A stretch of 30,308 bases of DNA from a virus: the UHGV virus genome UHGV-0218987; one strand, 5' to 3'. A program made the position numbers and the translations under genes. Below the pieces are notes generated by a model, which saw nothing but the letters and a program-made list of their open reading frames with translations, was not told the DNA's origin and searched no databases. This document shows positions 3,189 through 28,476 of the stretch, in pieces; position 1 is the stretch's first letter, and each line of letters starts with the position of its first letter.

Positions 3189-5933
3189 TTAACCTTTAGA
3201 AAAAACAGACAGTAACGGAAGTGTAAAAGTCGACACACCAGTATTCATCATGCAGGTTTTACCACCTGAGTATCCAGATATGGTTTGCGAAACTGGACTT
3301 CCTGTTGTTGGGAAAATGGTGATTTCATCCCCCCCCTTCAATACTCTAACTTTGCCTGTAACATCAACCGATGAACTTGAAACAGACGTGAGAGATCCGT
3401 TGGTCATTGTATAAAAGTTTATAGTTCCTGTTGCTGTTCTGCTTACACCACATCCTGATTTTTGCTTCTGTTTATAGTTAAACAATACCAGCAGGCCAAC
3501 AGGCATTGACTCAAGCTCAACTGCTGTAGACTGGTAGGTCTTACTGCCGTTTCTCATGTCAGGAGCCTCATCATCTGGATCAGAAAAATTATACCCAAGA
3601 GTTAAATCATTAACCGTGGCATTATTCCCTGTTATTCCTTTGACTTGATTAACACTTAACGGTATGTAATTAAACCCTGCAAAAAGCGGTGTTAACTTTT
3701 CTCTAAATAAAAGGCCTGGTGGGTATACTAACGAAGGTGTACCATCATATGTCACTGAGATAATATTAAGTCCCTTTTTAAGGGTTCCAATGCACGTTGT
3801 TTGTTTGCCTGTAAATGATGTTAGCCCATTGCTGGCAACTTTACCTGATAGATAAGAAGAGTTCCTGATGTCATTGAGAATGACATTGAACTGGTTAACA
3901 CGATCTGATGAAGTATAAGTTGGGTTATATGGCTCAAATAATGTTACAGAGATATCGCTTGTATCACTCCATACAAAATACCGACAAATAACATTTTCAT
4001 TTGAAGGCGTAATCCTTCCCCATCCACCAAGTGCATCAAGATAATCACCTCCACTTAATATCGAAATTGATGGGTAGTATCTGGTATTTGAAGGGTATCC
4101 AATACCAATAAATGAAAGTTGAGTAGTAGGGATTAGGTTCTTATTTTTTACAGCTGTATAAACGCGCTCTTTTAATACCTCTTTTGCAGCATAAGCACCG
4201 ATGTATGCATGTCCTATCGTTGATGGATGGCTCTGGTCAAAGACAGTACCGCCGTCACGTTTGGCAACATCAGATATAGAGTACGCGCCTATATCTGCAT
4301 AAGCGTCAGTCGTGGCAATGGACAAATCCAAAAACTCGACCTTTGGGAAAAGGCGTTCGATACGCTTCTTAATGGCTGACTCCAGGAAAGCCTTTGGCGC
4401 ATCGTTATTGTTTACAGTAACAAAGCATATCGGACAACCATATCCCCATGATTTTCTAATCAACTTTTCAAACTCATGAAAATACGCTTCAAATCCTATT
4501 GTTGGAAGTATTCCATTGTCATTAAAACCAAGGCTTATAAAAAGAACATCAGGAGCTTTTTTTCCATACGCAGCATTCTGGAAAAATCCATAGTCGAAGT
4601 TTTCATAACCCCAACCTGTCGCAAGTGACTTGCCAGACGATCCGCAGTTATATGCTTTAAAAATATTATCCGTGCTGTCGGATAGCATATTGAGGCAATC
4701 AGTAAAAATTCTGAACCATGAATGCTTACCGCCATTTAAATTATGATTGTAGTTGGTAGAGTTAAGATTTCCATCGCTACCAGTCGGGTTCGGGGTCCAT
4801 CCTGAACTATAGGCTCCATCCGTTATAGAATCACCAATGATACCTACATGGCAATCTTCTATAGTTGATTGGTAACTCTGCTTATTTGCAAATTTAGCAA
4901 TTGTTCCAAGAGCAGTAAAATCAGGGCCATTGTTAGATAGCCCAACATCAAAAACATGCTCATTACCCCATTTGTCTCTTGTGAGAATTTTACCTTCTCC
5001 AAGAAATTTAGTCACATCATCTGACGGTAAAAAATTACACCTGATGGTTACATCTTTTGGGATGTAAATCTGACCAGGGAAAGCATAAATTGCACTTCTG
5101 TTGTCAGTTGTCGTGTTAATAACGACATTTGGAACATAAAATATTGACGTTGCGTCAGTTCTATATTGTCCGTTAACAAGCTCAGATCTGAGAACCGCAT
5201 CCCCAACACCTCTCCAAGCGCCAGGACCAACACCACCAGTAGTGGTAGGAGTTGATCCTGGAGGAACTACTTTGGGCAGTGGCCCGTCCCATCTGTAGTA
5301 TTCGCCGTTGCTTTCCCAGAGAAGAACATCGTTAAGATAGATGATGGTATTACCCAACTCAAAAGATTTCTTCGTGTTATAGCCATACAATCCATTTTCT
5401 AAGGTTTCAATAATGGTGCTAAGTATGGTACTAAATTTTGCATAAAGATCATCAGTATATTTTTTTGTAGCAGCATCTTGGGGAAGAGATGGATCACGAA
5501 GATTTCTAATATAATTTGAAAGCGCGTCATAAAAAATTGCTACGTCATTTGGCTTTCTTAAAGCCAACTTATCATTTCTTAATGATTGTTGAATGAGCAT
5601 AGTAAGTTTATCAAACGCATCCTCATGTACCTCAGCGAAGAACTTACCCTGATTACGTAAATCCGTTTCCTGAGTAGCTGGTAGTTCTCGTGATATAGAT
5701 ATCTGATGACCGTTAGCCAACGCCTTCGAGAGAATTACATTACCGCCGTTATATCCTCCAGCCCCGGTAACTGTGTAATCAGTATCAAGAGCCAGCACAG
5801 CGATATTTTCGTCAAGGTCAACCACCTGTACTACCAGATCAGATTTATTGAAAACCCTAAAGGTGTACGGAAATGATGTCGTAACGCCGTTACCTGTGTA
5901 TTCGTTGTGGTCAACTTCGGTTGAGACCGTCAT
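3189..5933 (-). CDS. Tailspike / tail fibre with SGNH (GDSL) esterase domain
   Basis: 914-aa ORF with GGAGA RBS. N-terminal YTGNGVTTSFPYTF virion-attachment-like motif; central blocks GIIGDSITDG (GDSxxDG), ISLGFNDNG (GxND) and DQSHPS that together match SGNH hydrolase blocks I/III/V. Gene is visibly more AT-rich than its neighbours. Confidence 0.75.
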   Translation of the reverse strand: MTVSTEVDHNEYTGNGVTTSFPYTFRVFNKSDLVVQVVDLDENIAVLALDTDYTVTGAGGYNGGNVILSKALANGHQISISRELPATQETDLRNQGKFFAEVHEDAFDKLTMLIQQSLRNDKLALRKPNDVAIFYDALSNYIRNLRDPSLPQDAATKKYTDDLYAKFSTILSTIIETLENGLYGYNTKKSFELGNTIIYLNDVLLWESNGEYYRWDGPLPKVVPPGSTPTTTGGVGPGAWRGVGDAVLRSELVNGQYRTDATSIFYVPNVVINTTTDNRSAIYAFPGQIYIPKDVTIRCNFLPSDDVTKFLGEGKILTRDKWGNEHVFDVGLSNNGPDFTALGTIAKFANKQSYQSTIEDCHVGIIGDSITDGAYSSGWTPNPTGSDGNLNSTNYNHNLNGGKHSWFRIFTDCLNMLSDSTDNIFKAYNCGSSGKSLATGWGYENFDYGFFQNAAYGKKAPDVLFISLGFNDNGILPTIGFEAYFHEFEKLIRKSWGYGCPICFVTVNNNDAPKAFLESAIKKRIERLFPKVEFLDLSIATTDAYADIGAYSISDVAKRDGGTVFDQSHPSTIGHAYIGAYAAKEVLKERVYTAVKNKNLIPTTQLSFIGIGYPSNTRYYPSISILSGGDYLDALGGWGRITPSNENVICRYFVWSDTSDISVTLFEPYNPTYTSSDRVNQFNVILNDIRNSSYLSGKVASNGLTSFTGKQTTCIGTLKKGLNIISVTYDGTPSLVYPPGLLFREKLTPLFAGFNYIPLSVNQVKGITGNNATVNDLTLGYNFSDPDDEAPDMRNGSKTYQSTAVELESMPVGLLVLFNYKQKQKSGCGVSRTATGTINFYTMTNGSLTSVSSSSVDVTGKVRVLKGGDEITIFPTTGSPVSQTISGYSGGKTCMMNTGVSTFTLPLLSVFSKG

Positions 5934-6036: not shown

Positions 6037-6053
6037 ATTACCTTTCAGGTAAT
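6037..6053. promoter_or_regulatory. Perfect inverted repeat ATTACCT-TTC-AGGTAAT (operator-like)
   Basis: 7-bp perfect arms with a 3-nt spacer; same motif family as 25061-25077, 7485-7499 and 6416-6434. Confidence 0.5.
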
Positions 6054-6089
6054 TCGCAAAACGTGCTGGATAGCAAACAAATTATTTGC

Positions 6090-6109
6090 TACTGTATAAA
6101 TATACAGTT
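6090..6109 (+). promoter_or_regulatory. LexA (SOS) box TACTGTATAAATATACAGTT overlapping the promoter of the 6129 gene
   Basis: CTGT-N8-ACAG with an AT-rich spacer, a near-ideal match to the TACTG(TA)5CAGTA consensus; flanked by a -35-like TTGCTA (6086-6091) and TATTAC (6109-6114); 20 nt upstream of the start codon. Confidence 0.75.
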
Positions 6110-6128
6110 ATTACATGGAGAAGATAAG

Positions 6129-6386
6129 ATGCAGCAGTATCACTATCCACTGGAAGACGGATTTACCGAAAGGATTCACACGCCGGGAGGCGTCAGGTCA
6201 CTGGTGGAGGGATCGCACTTGATGAAATTACTCCGGGATCTCGATAAGGATGGATTTAATGTCGATGGCCCACTTGCCGAACTGACTGCACTGATTAACT
6301 ACGTCACCAGCTCACAGATGTCTATGCGGGATCTGCAAACACATCTCGACTATTGTGCCGAACAATTACGAAAACAAACCAGATAA
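6129..6386 (+). CDS. Small SOS-regulated protein, paralog of the C-terminal domain of the Bro-N antirepressor-like protein (candidate antirepressor or modulator)
   Basis: ATG at 6129 with GGAGA RBS (the listed ORF start at 6063 lies upstream of the LexA box and is unlikely). The product aligns with the C-terminus of the 6702..7412 protein (…GV…L-E-S-LM-LL…DG…V-G…AELT…RD-QTH…Y). Confidence 0.6.
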   Translation: MQQYHYPLEDGFTERIHTPGGVRSLVEGSHLMKLLRDLDKDGFNVDGPLAELTALINYVTSSQMSMRDLQTHLDYCAEQLRKQTR

Positions 6387-6400
6387 GATTTGAAATTACC

Positions 6401-6452
6401 AAGAGGAGTGCTTATATTTACCTTTGCGGTAAATTTACATCGCACTCCTCTT
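6401..6452 (+). other. Large nested hairpin (AAGAGGAGTGC … GCACTCCTCTT) enclosing inverted repeat ATTTACC-N5-GGTAAAT
   Basis: 11-bp perfect outer stem with a roughly 30-nt loop that itself contains a TTACC/GGTAA-family inverted repeat (6416-6434); followed by a second hairpin GGCACTGG-CAAAAT-CCAGTGCC at 6468-6489. Confidence 0.5.
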
Positions 6453-6522
6453 GTGCCATAGTAATCGGGCACTGGCAAAATCCAGTGCCGGGATTGGCGT
6501 CCCGAGTTACTAAGTGGCGCAT

Positions 6523-6545
6523 ACCACGCCAGACGTGGTTTTTTT
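6523..6545 (+). terminator. Rho-independent terminator (or attenuator) downstream of the 6129 gene
   Basis: Stem ACCACG / CGTGGT with loop CCAGA followed by seven T. Confidence 0.6.
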
Positions 6546-6701
6546 ATGCGTTAAGCACAGCCATATCCGAATTATGGTGGGCTGGGCAGGGGTCCGAAAG
6601 GACGCCGGTACCACTTAGGCCGGTACGCCAACCTTGTCCAGTTCACCACCAGTAATTGGCGTTGCGGTGGTGATTAAAATCACTAAGTGGAGATAACCAC
6701 C

Positions 6702-7412
6702 ATGGCTAATGCTCAAACTGCCATCTTCAAATTTGAATCTGTTAACCCTATCCGTTCCATCATTATCGATGGCCAACCATGGTTTGTAGCCCAAGACGTT
6801 TGTAGTGCGCTGCGTATCCAAAACGTCACCCAAGCACTTGAAAAACTGGATGATGATGAAAGGTCTATGTTCAACATAGGGCATGAACATCGTGCAATTT
6901 TTGACAGCCGAGTAAAAGAGATCAACATCATCTCCGAGTCAGGCCTCTACACACTGATCCTCCGCTGCCGCGATGCGGTGACACCAGGCACTATCCCCTA
7001 CCGCTTTCGTAAATGGGTTACAGGTGAGGTTCTTCCTCAGATCCGCCGCACCGGAAGTTACATTAAAAACTCGCTCCCGCAGGAAGAACGCATAAAGATG
7101 GTTGCCGACCAGGTAGCCAACGCCACAGCATCAGCAGTGATGCAGGCAATGAAGATAGAGAACAAAACCTACAGTGCCCCACTGAAGCCCGGCTACCGCA
7201 GTCTGATTCATTCTCCGTCTGGTGTTCTCGGCCTGACGGAGAACTCACTGCTGATGAATTTGCTGAACCAGTTGCAGGAAGACGGGCACGATGTATCGGG
7301 CGCGGCGGCGGAGCTGACCACCATGTTTTGCTACATCGTTGGTGTGAGCAAATGCCTGCGTGATATCCAGACTCACGCGGAGTACATCAACGACAAGGCT
7401 GGGTTCTTCTGA
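6702..7412 (+). CDS. Bro-N / KilA-N-type antirepressor-like protein
   Basis: N-terminal Bro-N signature (FKFESVNPIRSIIIDGQPWFVAQDVCSALRIQN … YRFRKWVTGEVLPQIRRTGSY). Start at ATG 6702 with GGAGA RBS (the listed ORF starts at 6687). C-terminal about 70 aa paralogous to the 6129..6386 product. Confidence 0.75.
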   Translation: MANAQTAIFKFESVNPIRSIIIDGQPWFVAQDVCSALRIQNVTQALEKLDDDERSMFNIGHEHRAIFDSRVKEINIISESGLYTLILRCRDAVTPGTIPYRFRKWVTGEVLPQIRRTGSYIKNSLPQEERIKMVADQVANATASAVMQAMKIENKTYSAPLKPGYRSLIHSPSGVLGLTENSLLMNLLNQLQEDGHDVSGAAAELTTMFCYIVGVSKCLRDIQTHAEYINDKAGFF

Positions 7413-7456
7413 CGGGCGGCGGCACAGGGATGTGCCTTTAAATAATTCTGTACAGA

Positions 7457-7499
7457 TTGCAGACTGTGGGTGAATAGCGTACTATTACCTCAAGGGTAA
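7457..7499 (+). promoter_or_regulatory. Sigma70-like promoter (TTGCAG-N17-TACTAT) overlapped by inverted repeat TTACCT-CAA-GGGTAA
   Basis: -35 at 7457-7462 and -10 at 7480-7485 with a 17-nt spacer; the inverted repeat at 7485-7499 (5 of 6 arm positions complementary) overlaps the -10 and +1 region, suggesting repressor control. Confidence 0.5.
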
Positions 7500-7559: not shown

Positions 7560-7739
7560 ATGCGAAACGAAAAATTGCAGATGCGTAGAGCGCAAGCTGC
7601 CGCAAGACGTTCTTTCAATGGAAGCGTAGAGTACGTAAAAGTTACTATGACAAAAGATCACGCAAGTCGCGTATCCCGAGCTTTCTTTGATTCTCGTAAC
7701 AATAAGGAAAATTATGAGTTCGTCTGCGTCGCAGAATGA
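7560..7739 (+). CDS. Small basic ORF (59 aa) overlapping the start of the downstream gene; candidate antitoxin or regulator
   Basis: ATG at 7560 with GAGGT RBS 6 nt upstream; ends at TGA 7737-7739, overlapping the 7714 start by 26 nt in another frame. Below the 60-aa cutoff of the supplied ORF track. No homology claimed. Confidence 0.35.
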   Translation: MRNEKLQMRRAQAAARRSFNGSVEYVKVTMTKDHASRVSRAFFDSRNNKENYEFVCVAE

Positions 7740-8259
7740 TAAAAATCAAATTGTCAGATATAAGGGTCGAGTATTGCATACGCAAAATTTCTCGGCCCTT
7801 TGTGCATCTGATCTTGAGCTGAAGAAAGTATCTGATGCCTTTACCCAGTATTGGAAAACGGGATACCATCCATCTCTTGGTAAAGATGCTGCATTTGCTC
7901 GTCCGACAGAAATGCTTAAACTAAATGTCAGGCATACTCATGTCGATAACCAAGACTATATTCCAGAAGATAGTGATAAAAAACACACTGGTAAAAAATC
8001 ATCTTGGGATGCATGGAAAAATATAGCGTCTGTGCAAGTAAAATGCATACCAACAAGTGATTGCTTTTTAGTTTATTCGGTAAATCACAATCGTGATGCG
8101 CTGGTTATGTTTTTTGTTGACGCAGATGCCCACAACATAACTGAGCAAGAAGAGTTTAAAGAGGAAGCAATCACTATCAGTTATCAATTCTTTGAGAAAA
8201 CAAAAACAGAACCAATGCCTTTAGAAGAAGATCTTTTTTCTGATAAATGGAAGGAATAA
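7714..8259 (+). CDS. AT-rich cargo protein, candidate YafO-like toxin (ribosome-dependent mRNA interferase family)
   Basis: ATG at 7714 with AAGGAA RBS (the listed ORF starts at a TTG at 7687). Motif pattern GKDAAFA … KLNVRHTHV … CFLVYSV … ALVMFFVDADAH resembles, from memory, conserved YafO blocks (GRDA…, RVAHIHL, LVY, AWLLIAIL-PEPH). Followed by a strong terminator. Confidence 0.5.
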   Translation: MSSSASQNDKNQIVRYKGRVLHTQNFSALCASDLELKKVSDAFTQYWKTGYHPSLGKDAAFARPTEMLKLNVRHTHVDNQDYIPEDSDKKHTGKKSSWDAWKNIASVQVKCIPTSDCFLVYSVNHNRDALVMFFVDADAHNITEQEEFKEEAITISYQFFEKTKTEPMPLEEDLFSDKWKE

Positions 8260-8358: not shown

Positions 8359-8919
8359 CTACATTGATATATGATTCATAAAGTAGCTTAAAGATTTACT
8401 TCCCAGAAAAGAAATTTCTTTTCCTGGATATGTCGCAATAATTGAGCATGACTTATCCCCGTTAGAGGTAACAAATCCTGAATAACCTACTTGTTCTTTA
8501 CCATTTTGTTGCTTGGCTAAAAAGTAGAGGTAGCTTATCTTTTTGCCCTCTGGGTAAAACTCTGCCAAACCAGTATCGGTGATTGAATATTTTATTCTCC
8601 CGCCTTGAGTAACGTTTTCCATCTCAAGTTTAGCTATGTCTTTTCTGTTGTATTCAGCATTGATTTTCCTTTCGAAATCAATGTTGTTTTCAAATGAGTA
8701 GGAAGCAACAGTCTGAATAGATGGGAACACGTTTATCTGGATGCCTCCACAGTCGGCACAGGTATAAAGGTATGAATCAGATGGAATCCCCATAAAAGAA
8801 AACTGAGTTACCTTAAATTTATCGTTATCTCCAAAGTATTGAAGTTCGCATTTAACATTTTGCCCTGCAAAAGAAAATGCAGACATCAATATTGAAACAA
8901 AAAATATAATTGCCTTCAT
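8359..8919 (-). CDS. Secreted (signal-peptide) protein of unknown function; AT-rich cargo gene appended to the late operon
   Basis: Signal-peptide-like N-terminus MKAIIFFVSILMSAFSFA; start overlaps the stop of the 850-aa gene (TAATG); visibly AT-rich; followed by a terminator. Confidence 0.7.
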   Translation of the reverse strand: MKAIIFFVSILMSAFSFAGQNVKCELQYFGDNDKFKVTQFSFMGIPSDSYLYTCADCGGIQINVFPSIQTVASYSFENNIDFERKINAEYNRKDIAKLEMENVTQGGRIKYSITDTGLAEFYPEGKKISYLYFLAKQQNGKEQVGYSGFVTSNGDKSCSIIATYPGKEISFLGSKSLSYFMNHISM

Positions 8920-22781: not shown

Positions 22782-23074
22782 TCCTGTTCACTGGCCTCTT
22801 TGGCCATCTTCAAATACTGTTCAGGGCAATGCGCCATAACGCGCTGAAACAGCTCCAGCGCCAGATTGCGTTGCCCCTCATTAAATGCCATTGCCATAGC
22901 ATCCATCGGAGAGATAGCGGAAAACACCCGGCCTTTCTCCAGCACAGACCAGACAACGCGACGCCCCTGTTCACTGCTCATGACAAAGCGAATGTCATCA
23001 ATTTCACGCTGTGCCATGTCACGTTGCTTACGGGCGTTTTCTTCTTTCAGTTGATCGTCTTCGTAATCTGTCAT
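22778..23074 (-). CDS. Hypothetical small head-module protein
   Basis: 98-aa ORF overlapping the portal stop and the scaffold start (4-nt overlaps). Confidence 0.45.
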   Translation of the reverse strand: MTDYEDDQLKEENARKQRDMAQREIDDIRFVMSSEQGRRVVWSVLEKGRVFSAISPMDAMAMAFNEGQRNLALELFQRVMAHCPEQYLKMAKEASEQE

Positions 23075-24750
23075 TGTGATTGCCCACCCTGACCACTAAC
23101 TGCATTCGCCATAGCTGACAAAACACTCGGATCCGAAGTTTTAGCTTCGCTTAGCGTCTTGGCACCCTGTGCCGCCGCCATCCCCATCGCCATCATTTGT
23201 TGCTGCTGTTGTTGCTGTGCCCGTTGCTGGCGAGCCTGCTCAACCTGTTCCTGCGGAACAATGACGGTTGGAGACACTCCAGACATATCAGCGAATGCAT
23301 CGATCGCCTGATCAACGTTGAGTTTGTCGAGAGCTTCTGGTTTCGCTTGCGCAAGTTGACCAATGAAGTTAACCGTGGACGCCAGACTGGACAGGCCGAT
23401 AGACTTCTGCGCCTGAGCCATGACGGAAATGTATTCGACCTTCAGGGGCATGCCTTCCATCGCGTCAGGCGGTGGCGGCAACATGTTTTTACGCACCATC
23501 ATCGAGAAAGCGCGGTCAATGAGAGGATTAAGACATTCGTCGTTCAGACGCTCCAGAACCGGCCCCAACATCAGAAGTTTTTCTTCTTTCATTTCGATCA
23601 CCGCTTCAACAGGCATCGAGCGGGTATTGATGTTCTGCAACATCATGAACAGATCGACAAAGTAGGCGCTGTTAATGATTTGACGAGTGTCCTGAATGTC
23701 TGCCACCAAATCTGCTGTACTGGGGTTAACCAGATAAGCAGGCCTGAAGCCATCCTGACCAGTAATCTGATCGATATACGTGATGTCGCCAGGAAGAAGG
23801 GAGGCGCGCTGATTCTTGAGGGAAGTCGGAGCAACCATCGGAGGATTGGTGGCTTTATCAATCAACTGCGACTTGCGCTTCTGGAGAAGCTGCAATGCCT
23901 TAACAGGTCCAAGCGCCAGCATACCCGGGCATGATGATCCATAAACATCTTCGCCGTTAACTTCCCAGCGCGGAGCCATAATTGGAAACTCATCGAATCC
24001 GGACTCACGCAACAACTTGTCGTTATCGCCACCAACCTCGTAATAAACCGATTTGAATGGCTTGTTCTTGCTATCCAGCTTCGATGTATCGCGGTCAATG
24101 TTCGGATAAACCGAATGCATCACTTCAATCCACTTCTCGTAGGTGCCGCTTTCCCACATGCTTTTTACGGATTCGCTGACGTTATTTAGTCCGAATTCCT
24201 GAACAAGCTGACGAACAGTCATAGAGAACTTGCGAAAACAGGTGTCCACACTGCCACGAGGTGAGTTAGCCAGGTAGTAACTTCCTATCGGGAATGGCAT
24301 TGTACGAATGATGTCCTCGTCATCCTCCAGCACCGCCATTGCACCGGTGCTGTATGTGCCGAGGCTTCCGTATAACTGCGGCAGCGACTGATAGAGATTC
24401 GACTTATTGAACATATCGTTCATGCGGTTCTGCACTGCCTCAAGCCACAACTTAACAGGGCCATAATCCATCATTTCAGGATCTGGCGTAGCCAGGCGAA
24501 ACCACGGACGCACGGGGCTTGTGATGCCTGACATCATGCCGCTGGCGAGAGTGCGCGCCGCCATAGTCCCAGTCGAATCAATAATGCGTGTATTGCGTCG
24601 ATCGTTACGGTTGACCTCAGAAGTCAGAAAGCGGGAACCACGCGGGTTGATGTAATCACTCAACTCGCGCCAGTGCGGCTCGAACGACTGACGCTCGCTT
24701 TCAAGTTGTGCGAACTGTTTGTTCAATCGCTCTTTAGTTGTTTCCGCCAT
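23071..24750 (-). CDS. Portal (head-to-tail connector) protein
   Basis: 559-aa ORF upstream of the scaffold and capsid genes with GGAG RBS; size and position consistent with a podovirus portal; acidic Gln-rich C-terminus. Confidence 0.7.
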   Translation of the reverse strand: MAETTKERLNKQFAQLESERQSFEPHWRELSDYINPRGSRFLTSEVNRNDRRNTRIIDSTGTMAARTLASGMMSGITSPVRPWFRLATPDPEMMDYGPVKLWLEAVQNRMNDMFNKSNLYQSLPQLYGSLGTYSTGAMAVLEDDEDIIRTMPFPIGSYYLANSPRGSVDTCFRKFSMTVRQLVQEFGLNNVSESVKSMWESGTYEKWIEVMHSVYPNIDRDTSKLDSKNKPFKSVYYEVGGDNDKLLRESGFDEFPIMAPRWEVNGEDVYGSSCPGMLALGPVKALQLLQKRKSQLIDKATNPPMVAPTSLKNQRASLLPGDITYIDQITGQDGFRPAYLVNPSTADLVADIQDTRQIINSAYFVDLFMMLQNINTRSMPVEAVIEMKEEKLLMLGPVLERLNDECLNPLIDRAFSMMVRKNMLPPPPDAMEGMPLKVEYISVMAQAQKSIGLSSLASTVNFIGQLAQAKPEALDKLNVDQAIDAFADMSGVSPTVIVPQEQVEQARQQRAQQQQQQQMMAMGMAAAQGAKTLSEAKTSDPSVLSAMANAVSGQGGQSQ

Positions 24751-24764
24751 TTCAATGACTCCGG

Positions 24765-24971
24765 TTACTGGCCAAGCAGCGTTTTACCGCTGGTATTAGC
24801 GGTTGATGTGTCGCCCTGAGAACCGGTAAGCAGCGTAGAACTACGACCAGCAGCAGCGCGACGGCGACGAGTTTCTTCGTCGCGGGCATCAACAACGGCG
24901 GCATCCTGCTCCTGTGGTGCTGCCTGAACTTCTGGTGTTGCAGGCACTGACGGTGAGCTACCCATGCACAT
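24765..24971 (-). CDS. Small low-complexity hypothetical protein upstream of portal
   Basis: 68-aa ORF with GGAG RBS ending 14 nt before the portal RBS; the alternative overlapping frame (24752..24991) was judged less likely. Confidence 0.35.
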   Translation of the reverse strand: MCMGSSPSVPATPEVQAAPQEQDAAVVDARDEETRRRRAAAGRSSTLLTGSQGDTSTANTSGKTLLGQ

Positions 24972-24998
24972 ATCAATGACTCCGTACGCAATTAAATT

Positions 24999-25022
24999 AT
25001 TACCAATTTAACCACATATGAT
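24999..25022 (+). promoter_or_regulatory. Copy (iii) of conserved regulatory cassette (ATTACCAATTTAACCACATATGAT)
   Basis: Homologous to 5987-6010 and 3111-3137; followed by a TTGACA hexamer at 25040-25045 and the inverted repeat at 25061-25077. Confidence 0.45.
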
Positions 25023-25039
25023 TTATTTATCGTAGATAG

Positions 25040-25077
25040 TTGACATTTAACGCATGAATTATTACCTTTAAGGTAAG
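25040..25077 (+). promoter_or_regulatory. Promoter-like region (TTGACA) with inverted repeat ATTACCT-TTA-AGGTAA
   Basis: Consensus -35 hexamer; the operator-like inverted repeat sits where the -10 would be; lies upstream of the tRNA and Gp49-like module. Confidence 0.45.
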
Positions 25078-25398
25078 CAAAGAGTTCATTCCGGTTACTA
25101 ACCTGACTGGCTTGTCGTTAAATTGAACAGGTGGAGTGAGCTTTTATTTTGAGCAGTACGGCGTATGGCACATGCGCCGATAGCGGTCTGGATACGTTTA
25201 AGGGGCACCCTCCCTTGCTCGGGCAAACGAACCAGCTAGCCGGAATGTGCAAGTCGAGCGGTTTTATTCCGCGCACGGGGATTCACCATCCCGGCGATTC
25301 GGTGTGACGCCTCGGAAGAGACGAGGGTACAACGATGAGAGCATTTATGGAGCCGCGACAAAGTGTGGCGCCTTAACAGGCTAAGTGCTCTCAGCGTT

Positions 25399-25475
25399 GT
25401 GGCATTAGCTCAGTTGGACAGAGCAACCGCCTTCTAAGCGGTTGGTCGCAGGTTCGAATCCTGCATGCCGCGCCA
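25399..25475 (+). tRNA. tRNA-Arg (anticodon UCU), argU-like, phage-borne
   Basis: Cloverleaf folded by hand: acceptor stem GTGGCAT / ATGCCGC (one G-U pair), D-arm GCTC…GAGC, anticodon stem ACCGC / GCGGT with loop CTTCTAA (anticodon TCT), T-arm GCAGG-TTCGAAT-CCTGC, discriminator G, encoded CCA. Confidence 0.85.
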
Positions 25476-25518
25476 GAATCACGCCTAAGGACCGTGATGC
25501 CAGAAGTTCCAGGGGCTT

Positions 25519-25561
25519 GGCGGTGATGGTTTCCCTTGAAGGACTATCACCGCCCTTTTTA
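25519..25561 (+). terminator. Rho-independent terminator downstream of the tRNA
   Basis: 9-bp stem GGCGGTGAT / ATCACCGCC followed by CTTTTT. Confidence 0.55.
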
Positions 25562-25673
25562 CAGCAGGACGCCATTGCGATGACTTCATGCTGTAAACCC
25601 GTACAGCCACGGAAGGCATAACTCATTGCTTCCAGTTCGCCCGGTTCGCCGGGCATTTTTTTAAGGTGAGATT

Positions 25674-26030
25674 ATGAGCGACCAGCAAATCGAAAAAGAA
25701 ATCGTTGAGAAAGGCAAAACCGCTCCGCGAGTTACGCCTCAATATATCGAAAGCATCATTCTTGAAGAGCATTTCTTTACTGCTTATGACGGCATTCGTG
25801 CTGCCAATATGGGCGTTGGCGATTCATGGACAGCGCATAAATCTACAGACCTCCTGACTTTCTGCGTATTGGTACTGAAGAATGGCTTCACCGTCACCGG
25901 AGAGAGTGCCTGTGCAAGTCCGGAAAACTTTGATGCGGAAATTGGTCGGAAGATTGCCCGGCAGAATGCTGTAAACAAAATCTGGATGCTCGAAGGTTAC
26001 TTGCTGAAGCAGAAGTTAAGCGAGCAATAA
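25674..26030 (+). CDS. Gp49-like phage protein (N4 gp49 / Sf6 gp66 family), function unknown
   Basis: 118-aa ORF with AGGTGAG RBS; motif block TFCVLVLKNGFTVTGESACASPENFDAEIGRKIA…KIWMLEGYLL matches my recollection of this family. Confidence 0.6.
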   Translation: MSDQQIEKEIVEKGKTAPRVTPQYIESIILEEHFFTAYDGIRAANMGVGDSWTAHKSTDLLTFCVLVLKNGFTVTGESACASPENFDAEIGRKIARQNAVNKIWMLEGYLLKQKLSEQ

Positions 26031-26034
26031 CACC

Positions 26035-26046
26035 GTGACATGTCAC
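26035..26046. repeat. 12-bp perfect palindrome GTGACATGTCAC (copy 2 of 3)
   Basis: 4 nt after the Gp49-like stop codon and about 75 nt from the 3' end of the large terminase gene. Confidence 0.8.
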
Positions 26047-26050
26047 AAAC

Positions 26051-26078
26051 AGCCAGCCTATGAGCTGGCTTTGTTTTA
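26051..26078 (+). terminator. Rho-independent terminator after the Gp49-like gene
   Basis: Stem AGCCAGC-CTATGA-GCTGGCT followed by TTGTTTTA. Confidence 0.65.
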
Positions 26079-26120
26079 TCCTCACCAGAGGATATCAACG
26101 ACATTATCCCCACCAGCGGA

Positions 26121-27596
26121 TTAAGCATAGGGATCGTAATCTGTGATGGCCTTGCCTTGCTGGTTCTGCTGACCGGGAATTCGCAGACGCTTCGACACAG
26201 GGAACGCAAACGTCAGCAGTAGCGCATCGCCTTTACCAGGAGAACGCCCAAGTCGCTCTTTGATATCTTCCTTCGGTTCGATAACGATTTTACCGTCCAC
26301 TCGAACTTTGTACTCTGCTGCCGACAGGTCGTCCGCTGTTTCCTGGTCATCAAGCATGCCGCCCAGCCTCAGCCATGTCTTGCATGAGTTGAACATCTCC
26401 CCACGCTTGTTGAGCATCTGCGGGTCAGTAGACGCGCCACCGAACGGAACAAGTTGCCATGTACGACCCCAGCCGTCACCGATTGACTTCAGACCAGTTC
26501 CGTAACCGAAGTCGATGAACACTGCGTCAGCCTGGTACTGGTCTTCAAAGTCAGCGATACGCTTCGCCATAATCAGATCGTCAGTGGTCTTGTTGCCGGT
26601 CCACAGCACCTTACTATGCAGCCCCTGCCGCAGGTATATCACAGCGTCATCAACACCGGAGTATGCCGGGTCAACGCCGATTATCACCGGAGCATGTGCC
26701 ACCTGCGCAGCGGTTATCACCCGTTTCATTGCCTCGTCAGTAAGTCCGGTAGGGATAAACTGCAATTCAGATGCATCAGGGAATATTCCGCGCACACGGA
26801 TTTTAACGAAGTCACTGTCTTCCCCGTAGTCATCAACCCATTTCTGCAACTGCTGTTTGTTGGTGCCTTCCACCGTCCGGCTGTCAATCTGCGCAGTTTT
26901 CCAGCGGTGTTTATACTTGCGGAAACATTCACGGAATCGCCCGGTATTACGCGTCGGGTTTCCGAACGCCACCCAAATAATCTCAGTGTCTTCGTCCGTA
27001 AGCGCACCCTCGGCAACTTCCCACACCAGATCCGCAATGTTCGACGCTTCATCGAATACCACGATGATGCGTTTGCGCTCGTTGTGTAGTCCTGCGAATG
27101 CCTCAGTGTTGTGCTCAGACCAGGGGATTGCGTCAGCTCGCCACCGCTTGTCGTGTCCAGGATCATTGCTGTACATCGCGGTAGCGGTGCAGGTGAACCA
27201 GTCTTTCGTGATAGCAAGGTTCGACCACTTGATAATTTCAGGCCAGGTCTTCGTTCGTAGCTGGTTGTCGGTGTTGGCGGTCACCACGACCTTACAATCC
27301 TCGCAAGTGGACATGCCCCAGTTGATCAGCATTGAGATGAATGCGGATTTACCAATACCGTGACCCGAAGCACGTGCCAGCATAAGCGGCTGATAGCGCG
27401 TCTCTGGATTCTGCAGGTGATCACGTATCTCTCGGAACGCATCAGCCTGCCACTGACGTGGACCTGTGGCATGTGCTAATTCAGTCCCCTCTTCCCCCCA
27501 CGGGAACGCATAGAGGGCATAGCCAAGCGGATCGTGAGTGAACCCTGCAATATCCTCGATCAACTGCTCTTCAGGAGATAACGCTGTATCTGTCAC
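26121..27596 (-). CDS. Terminase large subunit
   Basis: Walker A-like P-loop GHGIGKS near the N-terminus of a 491-aa ORF; start overlaps the stop of the upstream small-terminase-like gene. Confidence 0.8.
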   Translation of the reverse strand: MTDTALSPEEQLIEDIAGFTHDPLGYALYAFPWGEEGTELAHATGPRQWQADAFREIRDHLQNPETRYQPLMLARASGHGIGKSAFISMLINWGMSTCEDCKVVVTANTDNQLRTKTWPEIIKWSNLAITKDWFTCTATAMYSNDPGHDKRWRADAIPWSEHNTEAFAGLHNERKRIIVVFDEASNIADLVWEVAEGALTDEDTEIIWVAFGNPTRNTGRFRECFRKYKHRWKTAQIDSRTVEGTNKQQLQKWVDDYGEDSDFVKIRVRGIFPDASELQFIPTGLTDEAMKRVITAAQVAHAPVIIGVDPAYSGVDDAVIYLRQGLHSKVLWTGNKTTDDLIMAKRIADFEDQYQADAVFIDFGYGTGLKSIGDGWGRTWQLVPFGGASTDPQMLNKRGEMFNSCKTWLRLGGMLDDQETADDLSAAEYKVRVDGKIVIEPKEDIKERLGRSPGKGDALLLTFAFPVSKRLRIPGQQNQQGKAITDYDPYA

Positions 27597-28192
27597 TGAT
27601 TACCATCCTGACGTTCTTTGAGTCGCTTCCTGGCTGCCGCTATGCGATCAGCAATTGTCACATTCACATTAACATCCAGGCGTTCTTTGAATGCGTTGAC
27701 GTCGACGTGCTTACCAATCAGTTCGAGGTTCTTCACCTTGTCAGGCCATTTAATTTTTTTGAGGATTGTCTCTATCGAATCCTCGTTCATGTTCATGATG
27801 GTCGATGACAGATCAAAGCCACTAAGCGTAGTGCGCCAGATTTTCGGCCACTCACGGATTGGTTTAAGGCTCCCATCGTCGTTGAGGATATCGATCACGT
27901 CCATCTGGTCGATCTCCACTAGGCGCATGAGAACGTAATCAGCACTGACGCGCATTCGTTTGTTGCGCTCCTCCATCAACTCGGCAATCCGTTTTTGAAT
28001 GCGTTCATCGCGCATCATGACACAGGCTTTAACTGCCGCTGTATTTGGGGAGAATCCTGCGTTAATCGCTGCCTGAGTCTGGTTTTCAGGCGTTTTGATG
28101 TATGACTGGCAATAAGCCTCCTGCATTGCTGTTAGTGGCTTAAATTGCGTTGATTTGCGTTTATAGGTTTTAGGTTCAGCAGGCATCATAAC
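27593..28192 (-). CDS. Terminase small subunit (putative)
   Basis: Gene immediately upstream of and overlapping the large terminase; start taken at ATGATG 28192 (MMPAEPK…, GGTGG RBS) rather than the listed 28267. Confidence 0.55.
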   Translation of the reverse strand, partial: VMMPAEPKTYKRKSTQFKPLTAMQEAYCQSYIKTPENQTQAAINAGFSPNTAAVKACVMMRDERIQKRIAELMEERNKRMRVSADYVLMRLVEIDQMDVIDILNDDGSLKPIREWPKIWRTTLSGFDLSSTIMNMNEDSIETILKKIKWPDKVKNLELIGKHVDVNAFKERLDVNVNVTIADRIAAARKRLKERQDGNQ

Positions 28193-28263
28193 CACCGTGG
28201 TAATAGTTACCGTTGTGGTAATAGTACCATGCAAAATAAAGCCGCCATAGTTGGCGGCAGTAT

Positions 28264-28476
28264 TCAAAGTCCATCAAATTCATCGTAAAAACTCTCGTCA
28301 AGATACCCTTCCCATTTACCGCGAATGAAAATTACATCCTCGCCGCAAGGGTGCTGACTGTCGATAACTATATCCCTCCTGGCGCAACCATACTTATGCA
28401 TGAGAAATTTAACCTCTTTCGGAAAATTTGCTGAGTTATCTCTCATATCTTCAAGGTCGTAGCGTATTTTTGGCAT
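28264..28476 (-). CDS. Hypothetical small protein
   Basis: ORF with AAGGTG RBS before the ATG at 28476 (the listed start at 28497 is a GTG inside the palindrome). Confidence 0.4.
   Translation of the reverse strand: MPKIRYDLEDMRDNSANFPKEVKFLMHKYGCARRDIVIDSQHPCGEDVIFIRGKWEGYLDESFYDEFDGL

Follow-up and report, generated by a model that had tools for sequence, protein, structure and literature searches.

What is encoded in the long untranslated leader that precedes a phage tRNA gene between terminase and portal genes read on the opposite strand? The question is raised by a stretch of 30,308 nucleotides, UHGV virus genome UHGV-0218987 (the whole of it is called the window below), which is part of a prophage like phiV10 and epsilon15 of the genus Uetakevirus. 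Here a unit on the plus strand sits between the gene for the large terminase subunit, TerL, and the gp3-like and portal genes, which read on the minus strand. The unit carries a tRNA-Arg(UCU) and a gene of the Gp49 family, and its leader, which is GC-rich and non-coding, is part of a stretch of about 600 nt that is untranslated throughout. Neither the tRNA nor the Gp49-family gene is new; both are ordinary and annotated, and RefSeq records of near-identical prophages list the tRNA and a 'Gp49 family protein' and leave the leader blank. The leader proves to be a real, widespread and unannotated family of structured RNAs that takes up a definite place in early operons, with a slot for an RNA cargo behind it, and its function is approached below by analogy with known systems.

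Positions 25155-25399 (245 nt) form a structured RNA with six helices, P1 to P6, and two proposed pseudoknots, PK1 and PK2 (see the table). The preliminary description of this locus had placed a leader at 25100-25398 and had suggested that it may be a structured RNA. Covariation and the match to a covariance model bear out that suggestion, and the leader is real and far from chance, but its limits according to the model match are 25155-25399. The structure was drawn by hand from 44 representatives, and the covariance model, R1, finds a single copy in the whole window with all helices present; it gave 101 matches in the first 100 sources searched. Compensatory changes were already seen in the earliest alignment, for example CCUCGGAAGAGACGAGG, CCUGGGAAGAGACCAGG and GCCGGGAAGAGUCCGGC. 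Among 27 diverse sequences 93.2% of cells were paired, compared with 26-42% when the partners were slid by one to three columns; 13 pairs were altered on both sides, in 67 cells, and the covariation score was reached by none of 500 shuffles. When 78 distinct model-aligned sequences were analysed, 94.4% of cells paired and 12 of the 26 pairs were compensatory. P6 occurs as 39 distinct hairpins, with compensatory versions such as GAGAGCA/UGCUCUC, AAGAGCA/UGCUCUU and GAUGGCU/AGUCAUC. PK2 has one compensatory variant, AACC/GGUU, and PK1 is invariant and thus beyond the reach of covariation. For the 5' domain, covariation at 25163:25175 (81 sequences with G-C, 29 with A-U) favoured a local P1 hairpin over the long-range model produced by RNAalifold, which was dropped.

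Between and within the helices the RNA is strongly conserved, with an invariant junction GGUAGCCGGAAUGUGCAAG and invariant blocks of at least 19 bases. An exact 18-mer taken from an invariant block served as retrieval seed, so that the invariance of this block in the larger set so gathered is a circular finding, but the BLAST-derived alignment shows the block to be invariant as well, save one base in the window copy, C25236. The closest E. coli relatives carry G at this position, which is the sole difference inside the RNA, and the P2-closing pair to which it belongs is U.G in 26 of 27 and 75 of 78 sequences. C25236 might reflect an error in sequencing or a mutation that disables the RNA.

Searches of Rfam 15 gave no match for 25100-25398 at E values up to 10, with riboswitches, ribozymes, RNase P, tmRNA, 6S and Y RNA included. 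At gathering thresholds the tRNA was the sole match in the leader-tRNA region, and at eight related loci, searched with E up to 0.5, the leader RNA was again without a match. No description of it was found in Rfam 15 or in the open-access literature searched, a scope that leaves older subscription papers outside, so that an earlier account is possible. The ideas of a minimal RNase P-like RNA and of a CCA sensor (through the GGU in GGUAGCC) were set aside as speculation, as neither had support from a covariance model.

Table. Positions of the structured RNA, its transcription unit and other features discussed (window coordinates).
Feature	Position	Strand	Remarks
Conserved RNA core P1-P5	25155-25329	+	Covariance model R1, 142.7 bits, E 2e-40
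P1	25159-66/25172-79	+	Hairpin, invariant GGCAC loop
P2'	25184-86/25240-42	+	
P2	25187-91/25232-36	+	Encloses variable hairpins
P3	25258-61/25269-72	+	Variable hairpin
P4	25278-82/25288-92	+	Loop CACC
P5	25310-14/25322-26	+	Hairpin, loop GAAGAGA
P6	25330-25399	+	Long hairpin, variable tip; last base doubles as tRNA base 1
Proposed pseudoknot PK1	25168-71 with 25247-50	+	P1 loop GCAC and junction GUGC
Proposed pseudoknot PK2	25284-87 with 25301-04	+	P4 loop CACC and downstream GGUG
Private G-to-C substitution	25236	+	U.G pair closing P2, motif GGUAGCC
Sigma-70-like early promoter	25040-25068	+	TTGACA 25040-25045, 17 bases, TACCTT 25063-25068; read from sequence; predicted start near 25075
Operator-like perfect palindrome	25062-25076		TTACCTTTAAGGTAA; overlaps -10 hexamer
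tRNA-Arg(UCU), CCA encoded	25399-25475	+	ARAGORN; Rfam RF00005, 69.4 bits, E 2e-13, gathering score 29
Terminator-like hairpin 1	25519-25554	+	14 pairs, then CTTTTT
Terminator-like hairpin 2	25639-25654	+	GCCCGG-TTCG-CCGGGC, then ATTTTTTT; 20 bases before the open reading frame
Gp49-family gene, 118 amino acids	25674-26030	+	PF13876 Phage_gp49_66 (N4 Gp49/Sf6 gene 66); phrog_322; function unassigned
Terminator-like hairpin 3	26051-26070	+	Ends unit facing convergent terminase gene
Portal/head-tail connector	23071-24750	-	Flank
gp3-like open reading frame, 68 amino acids	24765-24971	-	Flank
Large terminase subunit TerL	26121-27596	-	Open reading frame list; phiV10 and epsilon15 annotation
TerS	27593-28267	-	Flank
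phrog_450 open reading frame	6063-6386		immI-like module
isrK	6469-6545		immI-like module
C4 antisense RNA	6570-6653		immI-like module; real C4 copy
Anti-repressor Ant	6687-7412		immI-like module

The distribution of the RNA was assessed in phages, in bacterial genomes and in metagenomic contigs. A BLAST search with 24972-25400 against phage genomes returned 88 records. Over about 25158-25400, identities of 78-83% were obtained with phages outside Uetakevirus, namely the lambdoid phage cdtI, phages converting for Shiga toxin 2c (Stx2c), P1, P7, D6 and SJ46, and weaker or shorter matches (67-76%) with a Stenotrophomonas phage and with Klebsiella and Enterobacter phages. The RNA is carried by 889 of 5426 complete E. 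coli genomes, about 500 of them with the Uetakevirus type and about 390 with the cdtI/Stx2c type, and more than 120 IMG/VR contigs were retrieved with the exact 18-mer. Model-confirmed copies in a set of one genome per species came from Escherichia, Citrobacter, Klebsiella, Enterobacter, Kosakonia, Phytobacter, Kluyvera and Buttiauxella, as well as from Pseudescherichia, Pseudocitrobacter, Superficieibacter and Candidatus Erwinia. A 17-mer search, in which some 70 chance matches are expected in 596 Gb, gave matches in Bacteroidota, Planctomycetota and other non-enteric phyla, none of which was confirmed by the model, bar one 1.7-kb contig binned as Bacillota. The RNA is best explained as a member of a large, previously unannotated family belonging to temperate phages of Enterobacterales.

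The neighbourhood of the RNA was compared across 127 loci. In 68 of these the gene next upstream, on the strand of the RNA, encodes a cI-type repressor from one of three protein families; the TerL/portal context of Uetakevirus was seen at 29 loci and the ban context of P1 at 11 or more. In cdtI the stop codon of cI is followed by an intrinsic terminator, by the promoter TTGACA-16-CATAAT (11 of 12 matches) and then by the RNA, which starts 53 nt past the -10 hexamer and about 45 nt past the predicted start. This promoter, which is overlapped by operators of the form TGTACC...TACA resembling those of the cI-cro region, is pL, and the RNA fills the slot of lambda nutL or HK022 putL. A 3' extension of cI expressed in the lysogen, in a position like that of rexAB, was rejected on account of the cI terminator and the pL-type promoter with operators that lie between cI and the RNA. 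More generally, a promoter match scoring 9.5/12 or better lies 7-120 nt upstream in 18 of 34 distinct upstream classes, and 6 of the 34 reach 10/12, compared with none of 500 control windows. P7 has the RNA between tRNA-Ile and ban, within the C1-controlled ban operon, and in P1/P7 it lies about 2.4 kb from the promoter, behind a terminator and directly before ban, with no terminator after it. The P7 locus (L003) has a strong intrinsic terminator at 758-780, about 170 nt past the C1-controlled ban operator/promoter and before the tRNA genes.

The promoter-like region reported for the window in the preliminary description was recovered as TTGACA-17-TACCTT with an overlapping palindrome. This arrangement was found again in four independent upstream classes; the -10 hexamer TACCTT is weak, and a stricter scan misses it. 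The palindrome TTACCTTTAAGGTAA has 13 matches with at most three mismatches in the window against 0.44 expected, and near-perfect copies at 6038, 6418 and 7485 flank an immunity module composed of isrK, C4 and Ant. The epsilon15 record has a repressor binding site and an IHF site annotated where the counterpart of the palindrome lies. The window palindrome, pL of cdtI and the ban operon of P7 thus place the RNA, for each of the three phage groups, in the early regulon under repressor control. The best explanation of these data is that every member of the family belongs to a repressor-controlled early operon, as a rule 7-120 nt from the promoter, and that an exchangeable, CCA-tailed RNA closed by an acceptor stem normally comes after it, with terminators behind. 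For the window, the best explanation is that 25040-26070 is a single repressor-controlled early transcription unit of a phiV10-like prophage, in which promoter and operator are followed by the 245-nt structured RNA, tRNA-Arg(UCU), two intrinsic terminators, the Gp49-family gene and a last terminator.

After its conserved end, ...CGUU, the structured RNA is followed by an exchangeable RNA, which in 28 loci is a canonical tRNA-Arg(UCU). About 80% of the copies elsewhere have no adjacent canonical tRNA, and the leader is thus not an appendage of the tRNA. Elsewhere the cargo is non-canonical: an acceptor-like stem (GUGGUG...CACCAC) closes the RNA, whose tail reads A-(A)CCA or ACA. A D-arm-like hairpin, GCGC-AGGCUGAU-GCGC, covarying with GCAC/GUGC and GCCC/GGGC, is often present, together with a T-arm-like hairpin and a variable middle. 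One such middle resembles the anticodon arm of tRNA-Lys (CUUUUAA loop), and another matches positions 237-283 of 16S rRNA (Rfam SSU, 31.5 bits, E 2e-5). The tRNA-Arg of the window is one occupant of this exchangeable cargo slot. C4 RNA is matured by RNase P, and by analogy with the processing of C4 RNA and of tRNAs we infer that the cargo RNAs may be RNase P-type substrates by design. Further downstream, at least one co-oriented terminator-like site was found in 71% of 52 classes compared with 35% of controls, and at least two in 44% compared with 8%; in cdtI, two terminator-like hairpins lie ahead of the first pL gene.

Some minor features were also seen at and around the cargo. In loci L013, L070/L097, L004, L041 and L162 the cargo is a modular family of tRNA-like RNAs that was missed by ARAGORN and Rfam. 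A hairpin AAUCACG...CGUGAU stands directly behind the CCA end of the tRNA or cargo in many unrelated contexts (25477-25500 in the window). One prophage (locus L024) has two copies of the structured RNA, at 3997-4156 and 4804-4961 on the minus strand, the second of which is degenerate at invariant bases; a reverse-oriented open reading frame (ORF) lies behind each copy, which suggests recombination or moron insertion at the element. Tandem copies were considered as evidence for one RNA per cargo, and this was rejected in view of the degeneracy of the second L024 copy and of the reverse-oriented ORF behind it.

From its position, the leader RNA may be a cis-acting antitermination RNA analogous to put of phage HK022, a possibility that we put forward tentatively, as the best supported of the readings considered. 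The put RNAs of HK022, which are about 70 nt long, lie just after pL and pR and need no phage protein; they bind the zinc-binding domain of the RNA polymerase beta' subunit, and their activity is reported to be independent of tethering to the transcript (PMC9378689). A putL-like antiterminator RNA is annotated in phage HK639, in the slot that matches that of the leader RNA. In this reading the leader RNA would fold during transcription and act in cis on the polymerase that made it, which would become resistant to downstream terminators, as with the put RNAs of HK022 and HK639. In the window, read-through would then reach the Gp49-family gene, and in lambdoid phages whose pL operon does not begin with an N gene the early-left operon would be transcribed. 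Cleavage by RNase P at base 25399 would release the tRNA, and the freed tRNA could plausibly supply AGA decoding for the tail-fibre gene.

The comparison with put brings out likenesses as well as differences. In lambdoid phages the leader RNA, too, lies just past a repressor-controlled pL and ahead of terminators, with no N gene there, and such a location, past a repressor-controlled early promoter and before terminators, holds for the family except in P1/P7. Both RNAs are confined to phages of Enterobacterales and both have invariant loops and junctions. The P1 hairpin of the leader RNA and the put RNAs also have in common a 15-base motif, ACGGCG...CAUGCGUCG, a sharing that arises in 0.2% of shuffles by chance in a comparison made post hoc, and the link to put through this motif is suggestive only. 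In contrast, put has about 70 nt and two stem-loops (126 nt as annotated in HK639), whereas the leader RNA has 175-245 nt, six helices and two proposed pseudoknots; put was found in 21 phage records and the leader RNA in 88, and the latter also occurs in P1-like and Uetakevirus phages, with tRNA-like cargo. Model R1 gave no match in HK639 or HK022, and none of the 21 records returned by BLAST with putL has the leader RNA. A lambda-type nut site, that is boxA and boxB with an N gene, was not found, and the first pL gene of cdtI is neither Arg-rich nor N-like. A boxA within P6 was rejected, as the boxA-like string in its 3' strand is replaced in some members by an unrelated sequence that still pairs. 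One locus, L086, has an exact rrn-type boxA (TGCTCTTTAACAA, at 3361-3373) some 40 nt past P5 and just behind a bidirectional terminator hairpin, and a reverse-oriented ORF of 152 amino acids comes after it.

Several points weigh against antitermination. The case for it is a positional one, and in P1/P7 read-through cannot be ascribed to an RNA that lies so far from the promoter, past a terminator and with none after it. The Uetakevirus unit is short and runs towards the convergent terminase gene, so that processive read-through would yield RNA antisense to a late gene, and epsilon15 has lost most of the RNA and kept the Gp49-family gene. The RNA is far larger than put and has no detectable homology to it, one copy per phage could not serve both early operons, and the window copy may be impaired by C25236 at a nearly invariant base. 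Moreover, a layout of promoter, RNA and terminator would also fit a stand-alone gene for a non-coding RNA. That layout favours a stable trans-acting RNA, which would be made early after induction or infection, trimmed by RNase P at the adjacent tRNA or tRNA-like RNA, and would bind a conserved host machine or defence factor. Its roles might be host take-over, counter-defence or regulation of lysis and lysogeny, with the cargo RNAs as co-expressed partners such as decoys or antisense RNAs. A 3' neighbour that is a tRNA or an acceptor-stem-closed, CCA-tailed RNA, and the tRNA-Ile on the 5' side in P1/P7, are typical of processed stable RNAs; the module moves among three unrelated phage groups; its invariant junctions and loops are expected of a binding surface; and the resemblance of some cargo to the tRNA-Lys anticodon arm or to a 16S rRNA segment would also suit a trans-acting role, with which the P1/P7 and Uetakevirus contexts fit better than with antitermination. 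However, a trans-acting RNA leaves unexplained why the element is so closely tied to the opening 7-120 nt of early transcripts, as well as the lambdoid early-left genes that lie behind terminators without another promoter, and we consider such an RNA the main rival, a serious candidate if a rather unlikely one.

Alternatively, the core P1-P5 could be a sensor for a ligand or protein, riboswitch- or attenuator-like, that gates read-through via P6 and the downstream terminators. A highly conserved, pseudoknotted core combined with a variable P6 is reminiscent of an aptamer and its expression platform, and the RNA is in a 5' leader position with terminators downstream. A sensor is nevertheless improbable, as 77-130 nt of cargo lie between core and P6 and the terminators, leaving no apparent alternative pairing with a terminator; P6 itself is not a terminator, the RNA of P1/P7 is not followed by one, and no known riboswitch class in Rfam 15 matches. 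The RNA might also be passive and lack a specific function: a tRNA precursor would simply have a long, structured 5' leader, which perhaps shields the untranslated transcript from Rho or nucleases, as its place directly upstream of the tRNA in the untranslated stretch of the window would allow. This is very improbable, however, given the copies that lack a canonical tRNA and given that the long invariant blocks, the two pseudoknots and covariation over three phage groups are unexpected of a spacer. Finally, the element is overlapped by ORFs of 45-52 codons, is annotated with 'hypothetical proteins' in some phage records and adjoins terminase genes, all of which could point to a small protein gene or to a site acting at the DNA level, such as pac, an origin or an attachment site. 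It can scarcely be either. The conserved U.G pairs occur on the plus strand only, indels are not multiples of three and the ORFs annotated across the element are on differing strands between phage records, which together argue for an RNA and not for a peptide gene or double-stranded DNA site. The protein-coding reading was rejected on the indel lengths and on substitutions that keep base pairs and not codons, and in lambdoid and P1-like phages the element is also far from the packaging genes.

Returning to antitermination, it is possible, and is stated here with due reserve, that the leader RNA is the founding example of a new and common class of polymerase-modifying RNAs causing processive antitermination, maybe a distant and expanded relative of put, which heads early operons of lambdoid, P1-like and Uetakevirus phages and delivers cargo released by RNase P. 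If so, such an RNA would be present in about one sixth of E. coli genomes, including Stx2c-converting and cdt-converting phages. Antitermination by RNA only is known from essentially one small family, put. An antiterminating leader RNA would make RNA-mediated early control a common strategy among temperate phages of enteric bacteria, and would extend it to phages carrying Shiga toxin 2c and cytolethal distending toxin, whose early-operon read-through precedes toxin release. A trans-acting leader RNA would be among the most widespread unannotated phage RNAs in E. coli, with a built-in slot for tRNA-like RNAs that may be relevant to defence systems targeting tRNAs. In both cases, current genome annotation leaves a conserved 245-nt element blank or under spurious ORFs, and the covariance model and helix map make the RNA directly testable.

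The leader RNA and its cargo may further be compared with three other systems. Like C4 in the immI regions of P1 and P7 (RF01695), the leader RNA is found in a repressor-controlled operon of temperate phages, and the cargo RNAs behind it are built like C4, with an acceptor-like closing stem and an ACCA-type tail. In contrast, the leader RNA itself has no similarity to C4, which is an antisense RNA on the ant leader. The window tRNA has the cloverleaf, the UCU anticodon, A20 and the encoded CCA in common with argU; unlike argU, it has a structured RNA fused to its 5' side, and an operator-bearing promoter drives it. GOLLD and ROOL are described in a preprint (bioRxiv 10.1101/2024.12.08.627333) as large structured phage and prophage RNAs of unknown function that are often found beside tRNA genes. 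The leader RNA, too, is a structured phage RNA, with a tRNA neighbour in the window, but it has no Rfam match to either, is far smaller, and has Enterobacterales hosts and a fixed place behind early promoters.

As for the locus as a whole, 24700-26200 is 92-98% identical to phiV10, ZX5 and the E. coli O157 typing phages 9 and 10. The unit had been described as an insertion that separates terminase and portal genes, and this did not hold, as the divergent unit sits there also in phiV10, SPN1S and Tyrion and, decayed, in epsilon15. The divergent module is thus a conserved trait of Uetakevirus and not peculiar to the window prophage. In phiV10 and SPN1S the unit has both the structured RNA and the tRNA, and Tyrion has the structured RNA without a canonical tRNA. 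In epsilon15 the promoter/operator region and the Gp49-family gene are kept, the RNA is a 36-bit remnant and there is no tRNA. The features listed in the preliminary description (promoter-like region, leader, tRNA, terminators and Gp49-like gene) were all recovered at or near the positions it gave, with two corrections: a small gp3-like ORF lies between the module and the portal gene, and the single terminator described between the tRNA and the Gp49-like gene is there but is accompanied by another. The terminator placed after the gene was seen as a hairpin with a T-run, and the assignment of the gene itself agrees with a full-length match to PF13876 (E 1.6e-34, 118.6 bits against a cut-off of 27, profile positions 1-82 of 82) and with the name of its RefSeq homologue.

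The identity proposed for the argU-like tRNA-Arg(UCU) was upheld by ARAGORN and Rfam. Its anticodon, tct, is at position 35, and it has the D-loop GUUGGACA with A20 as well as C35; A20 and C35 are arginine identity elements. It is identical at 65 of 77 bases to what we take to be the sequence of E. coli K-12 argU, from which it differs in the acceptor and anticodon stems. AGA codons number 50 across 35 non-overlapping ORFs of the window. The tail fibre/tailspike ORF at 3189-5933 (914 amino acids, minus strand, GC content 0.40) has 16 AGA and 4 AGG among its 29 Arg codons (69%), and the few Arg codons of two more AT-rich ORFs, 7687-8259 and 8359-8919, are AGA or AGG in 50-100% of cases, compared with no AGA in the major structural, portal and terminase genes. 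The expected difference between cargo and core genes was thus seen as a strong enrichment of AGA/AGG in the AT-rich cargo, and it is plausible, judging from codon use, that the tRNA supplies AGA decoding for the AT-rich tail-fibre gene. The GC content of this gene, set against about 0.5 in its neighbours, and its share of the AGA codons are consistent with a recently exchanged receptor-binding module. The suggestion that the tRNA may be a secondary integration target was unsupported, as the integration site for phages of this group is the 3' end of guaA (PMC9782041).

Elsewhere in the window, a P1-type immI module is present within this Uetakevirus prophage at 6038-7499. The module is bracketed by TTACC-N5-GGTAA palindromes, which match the operator at the leader promoter.

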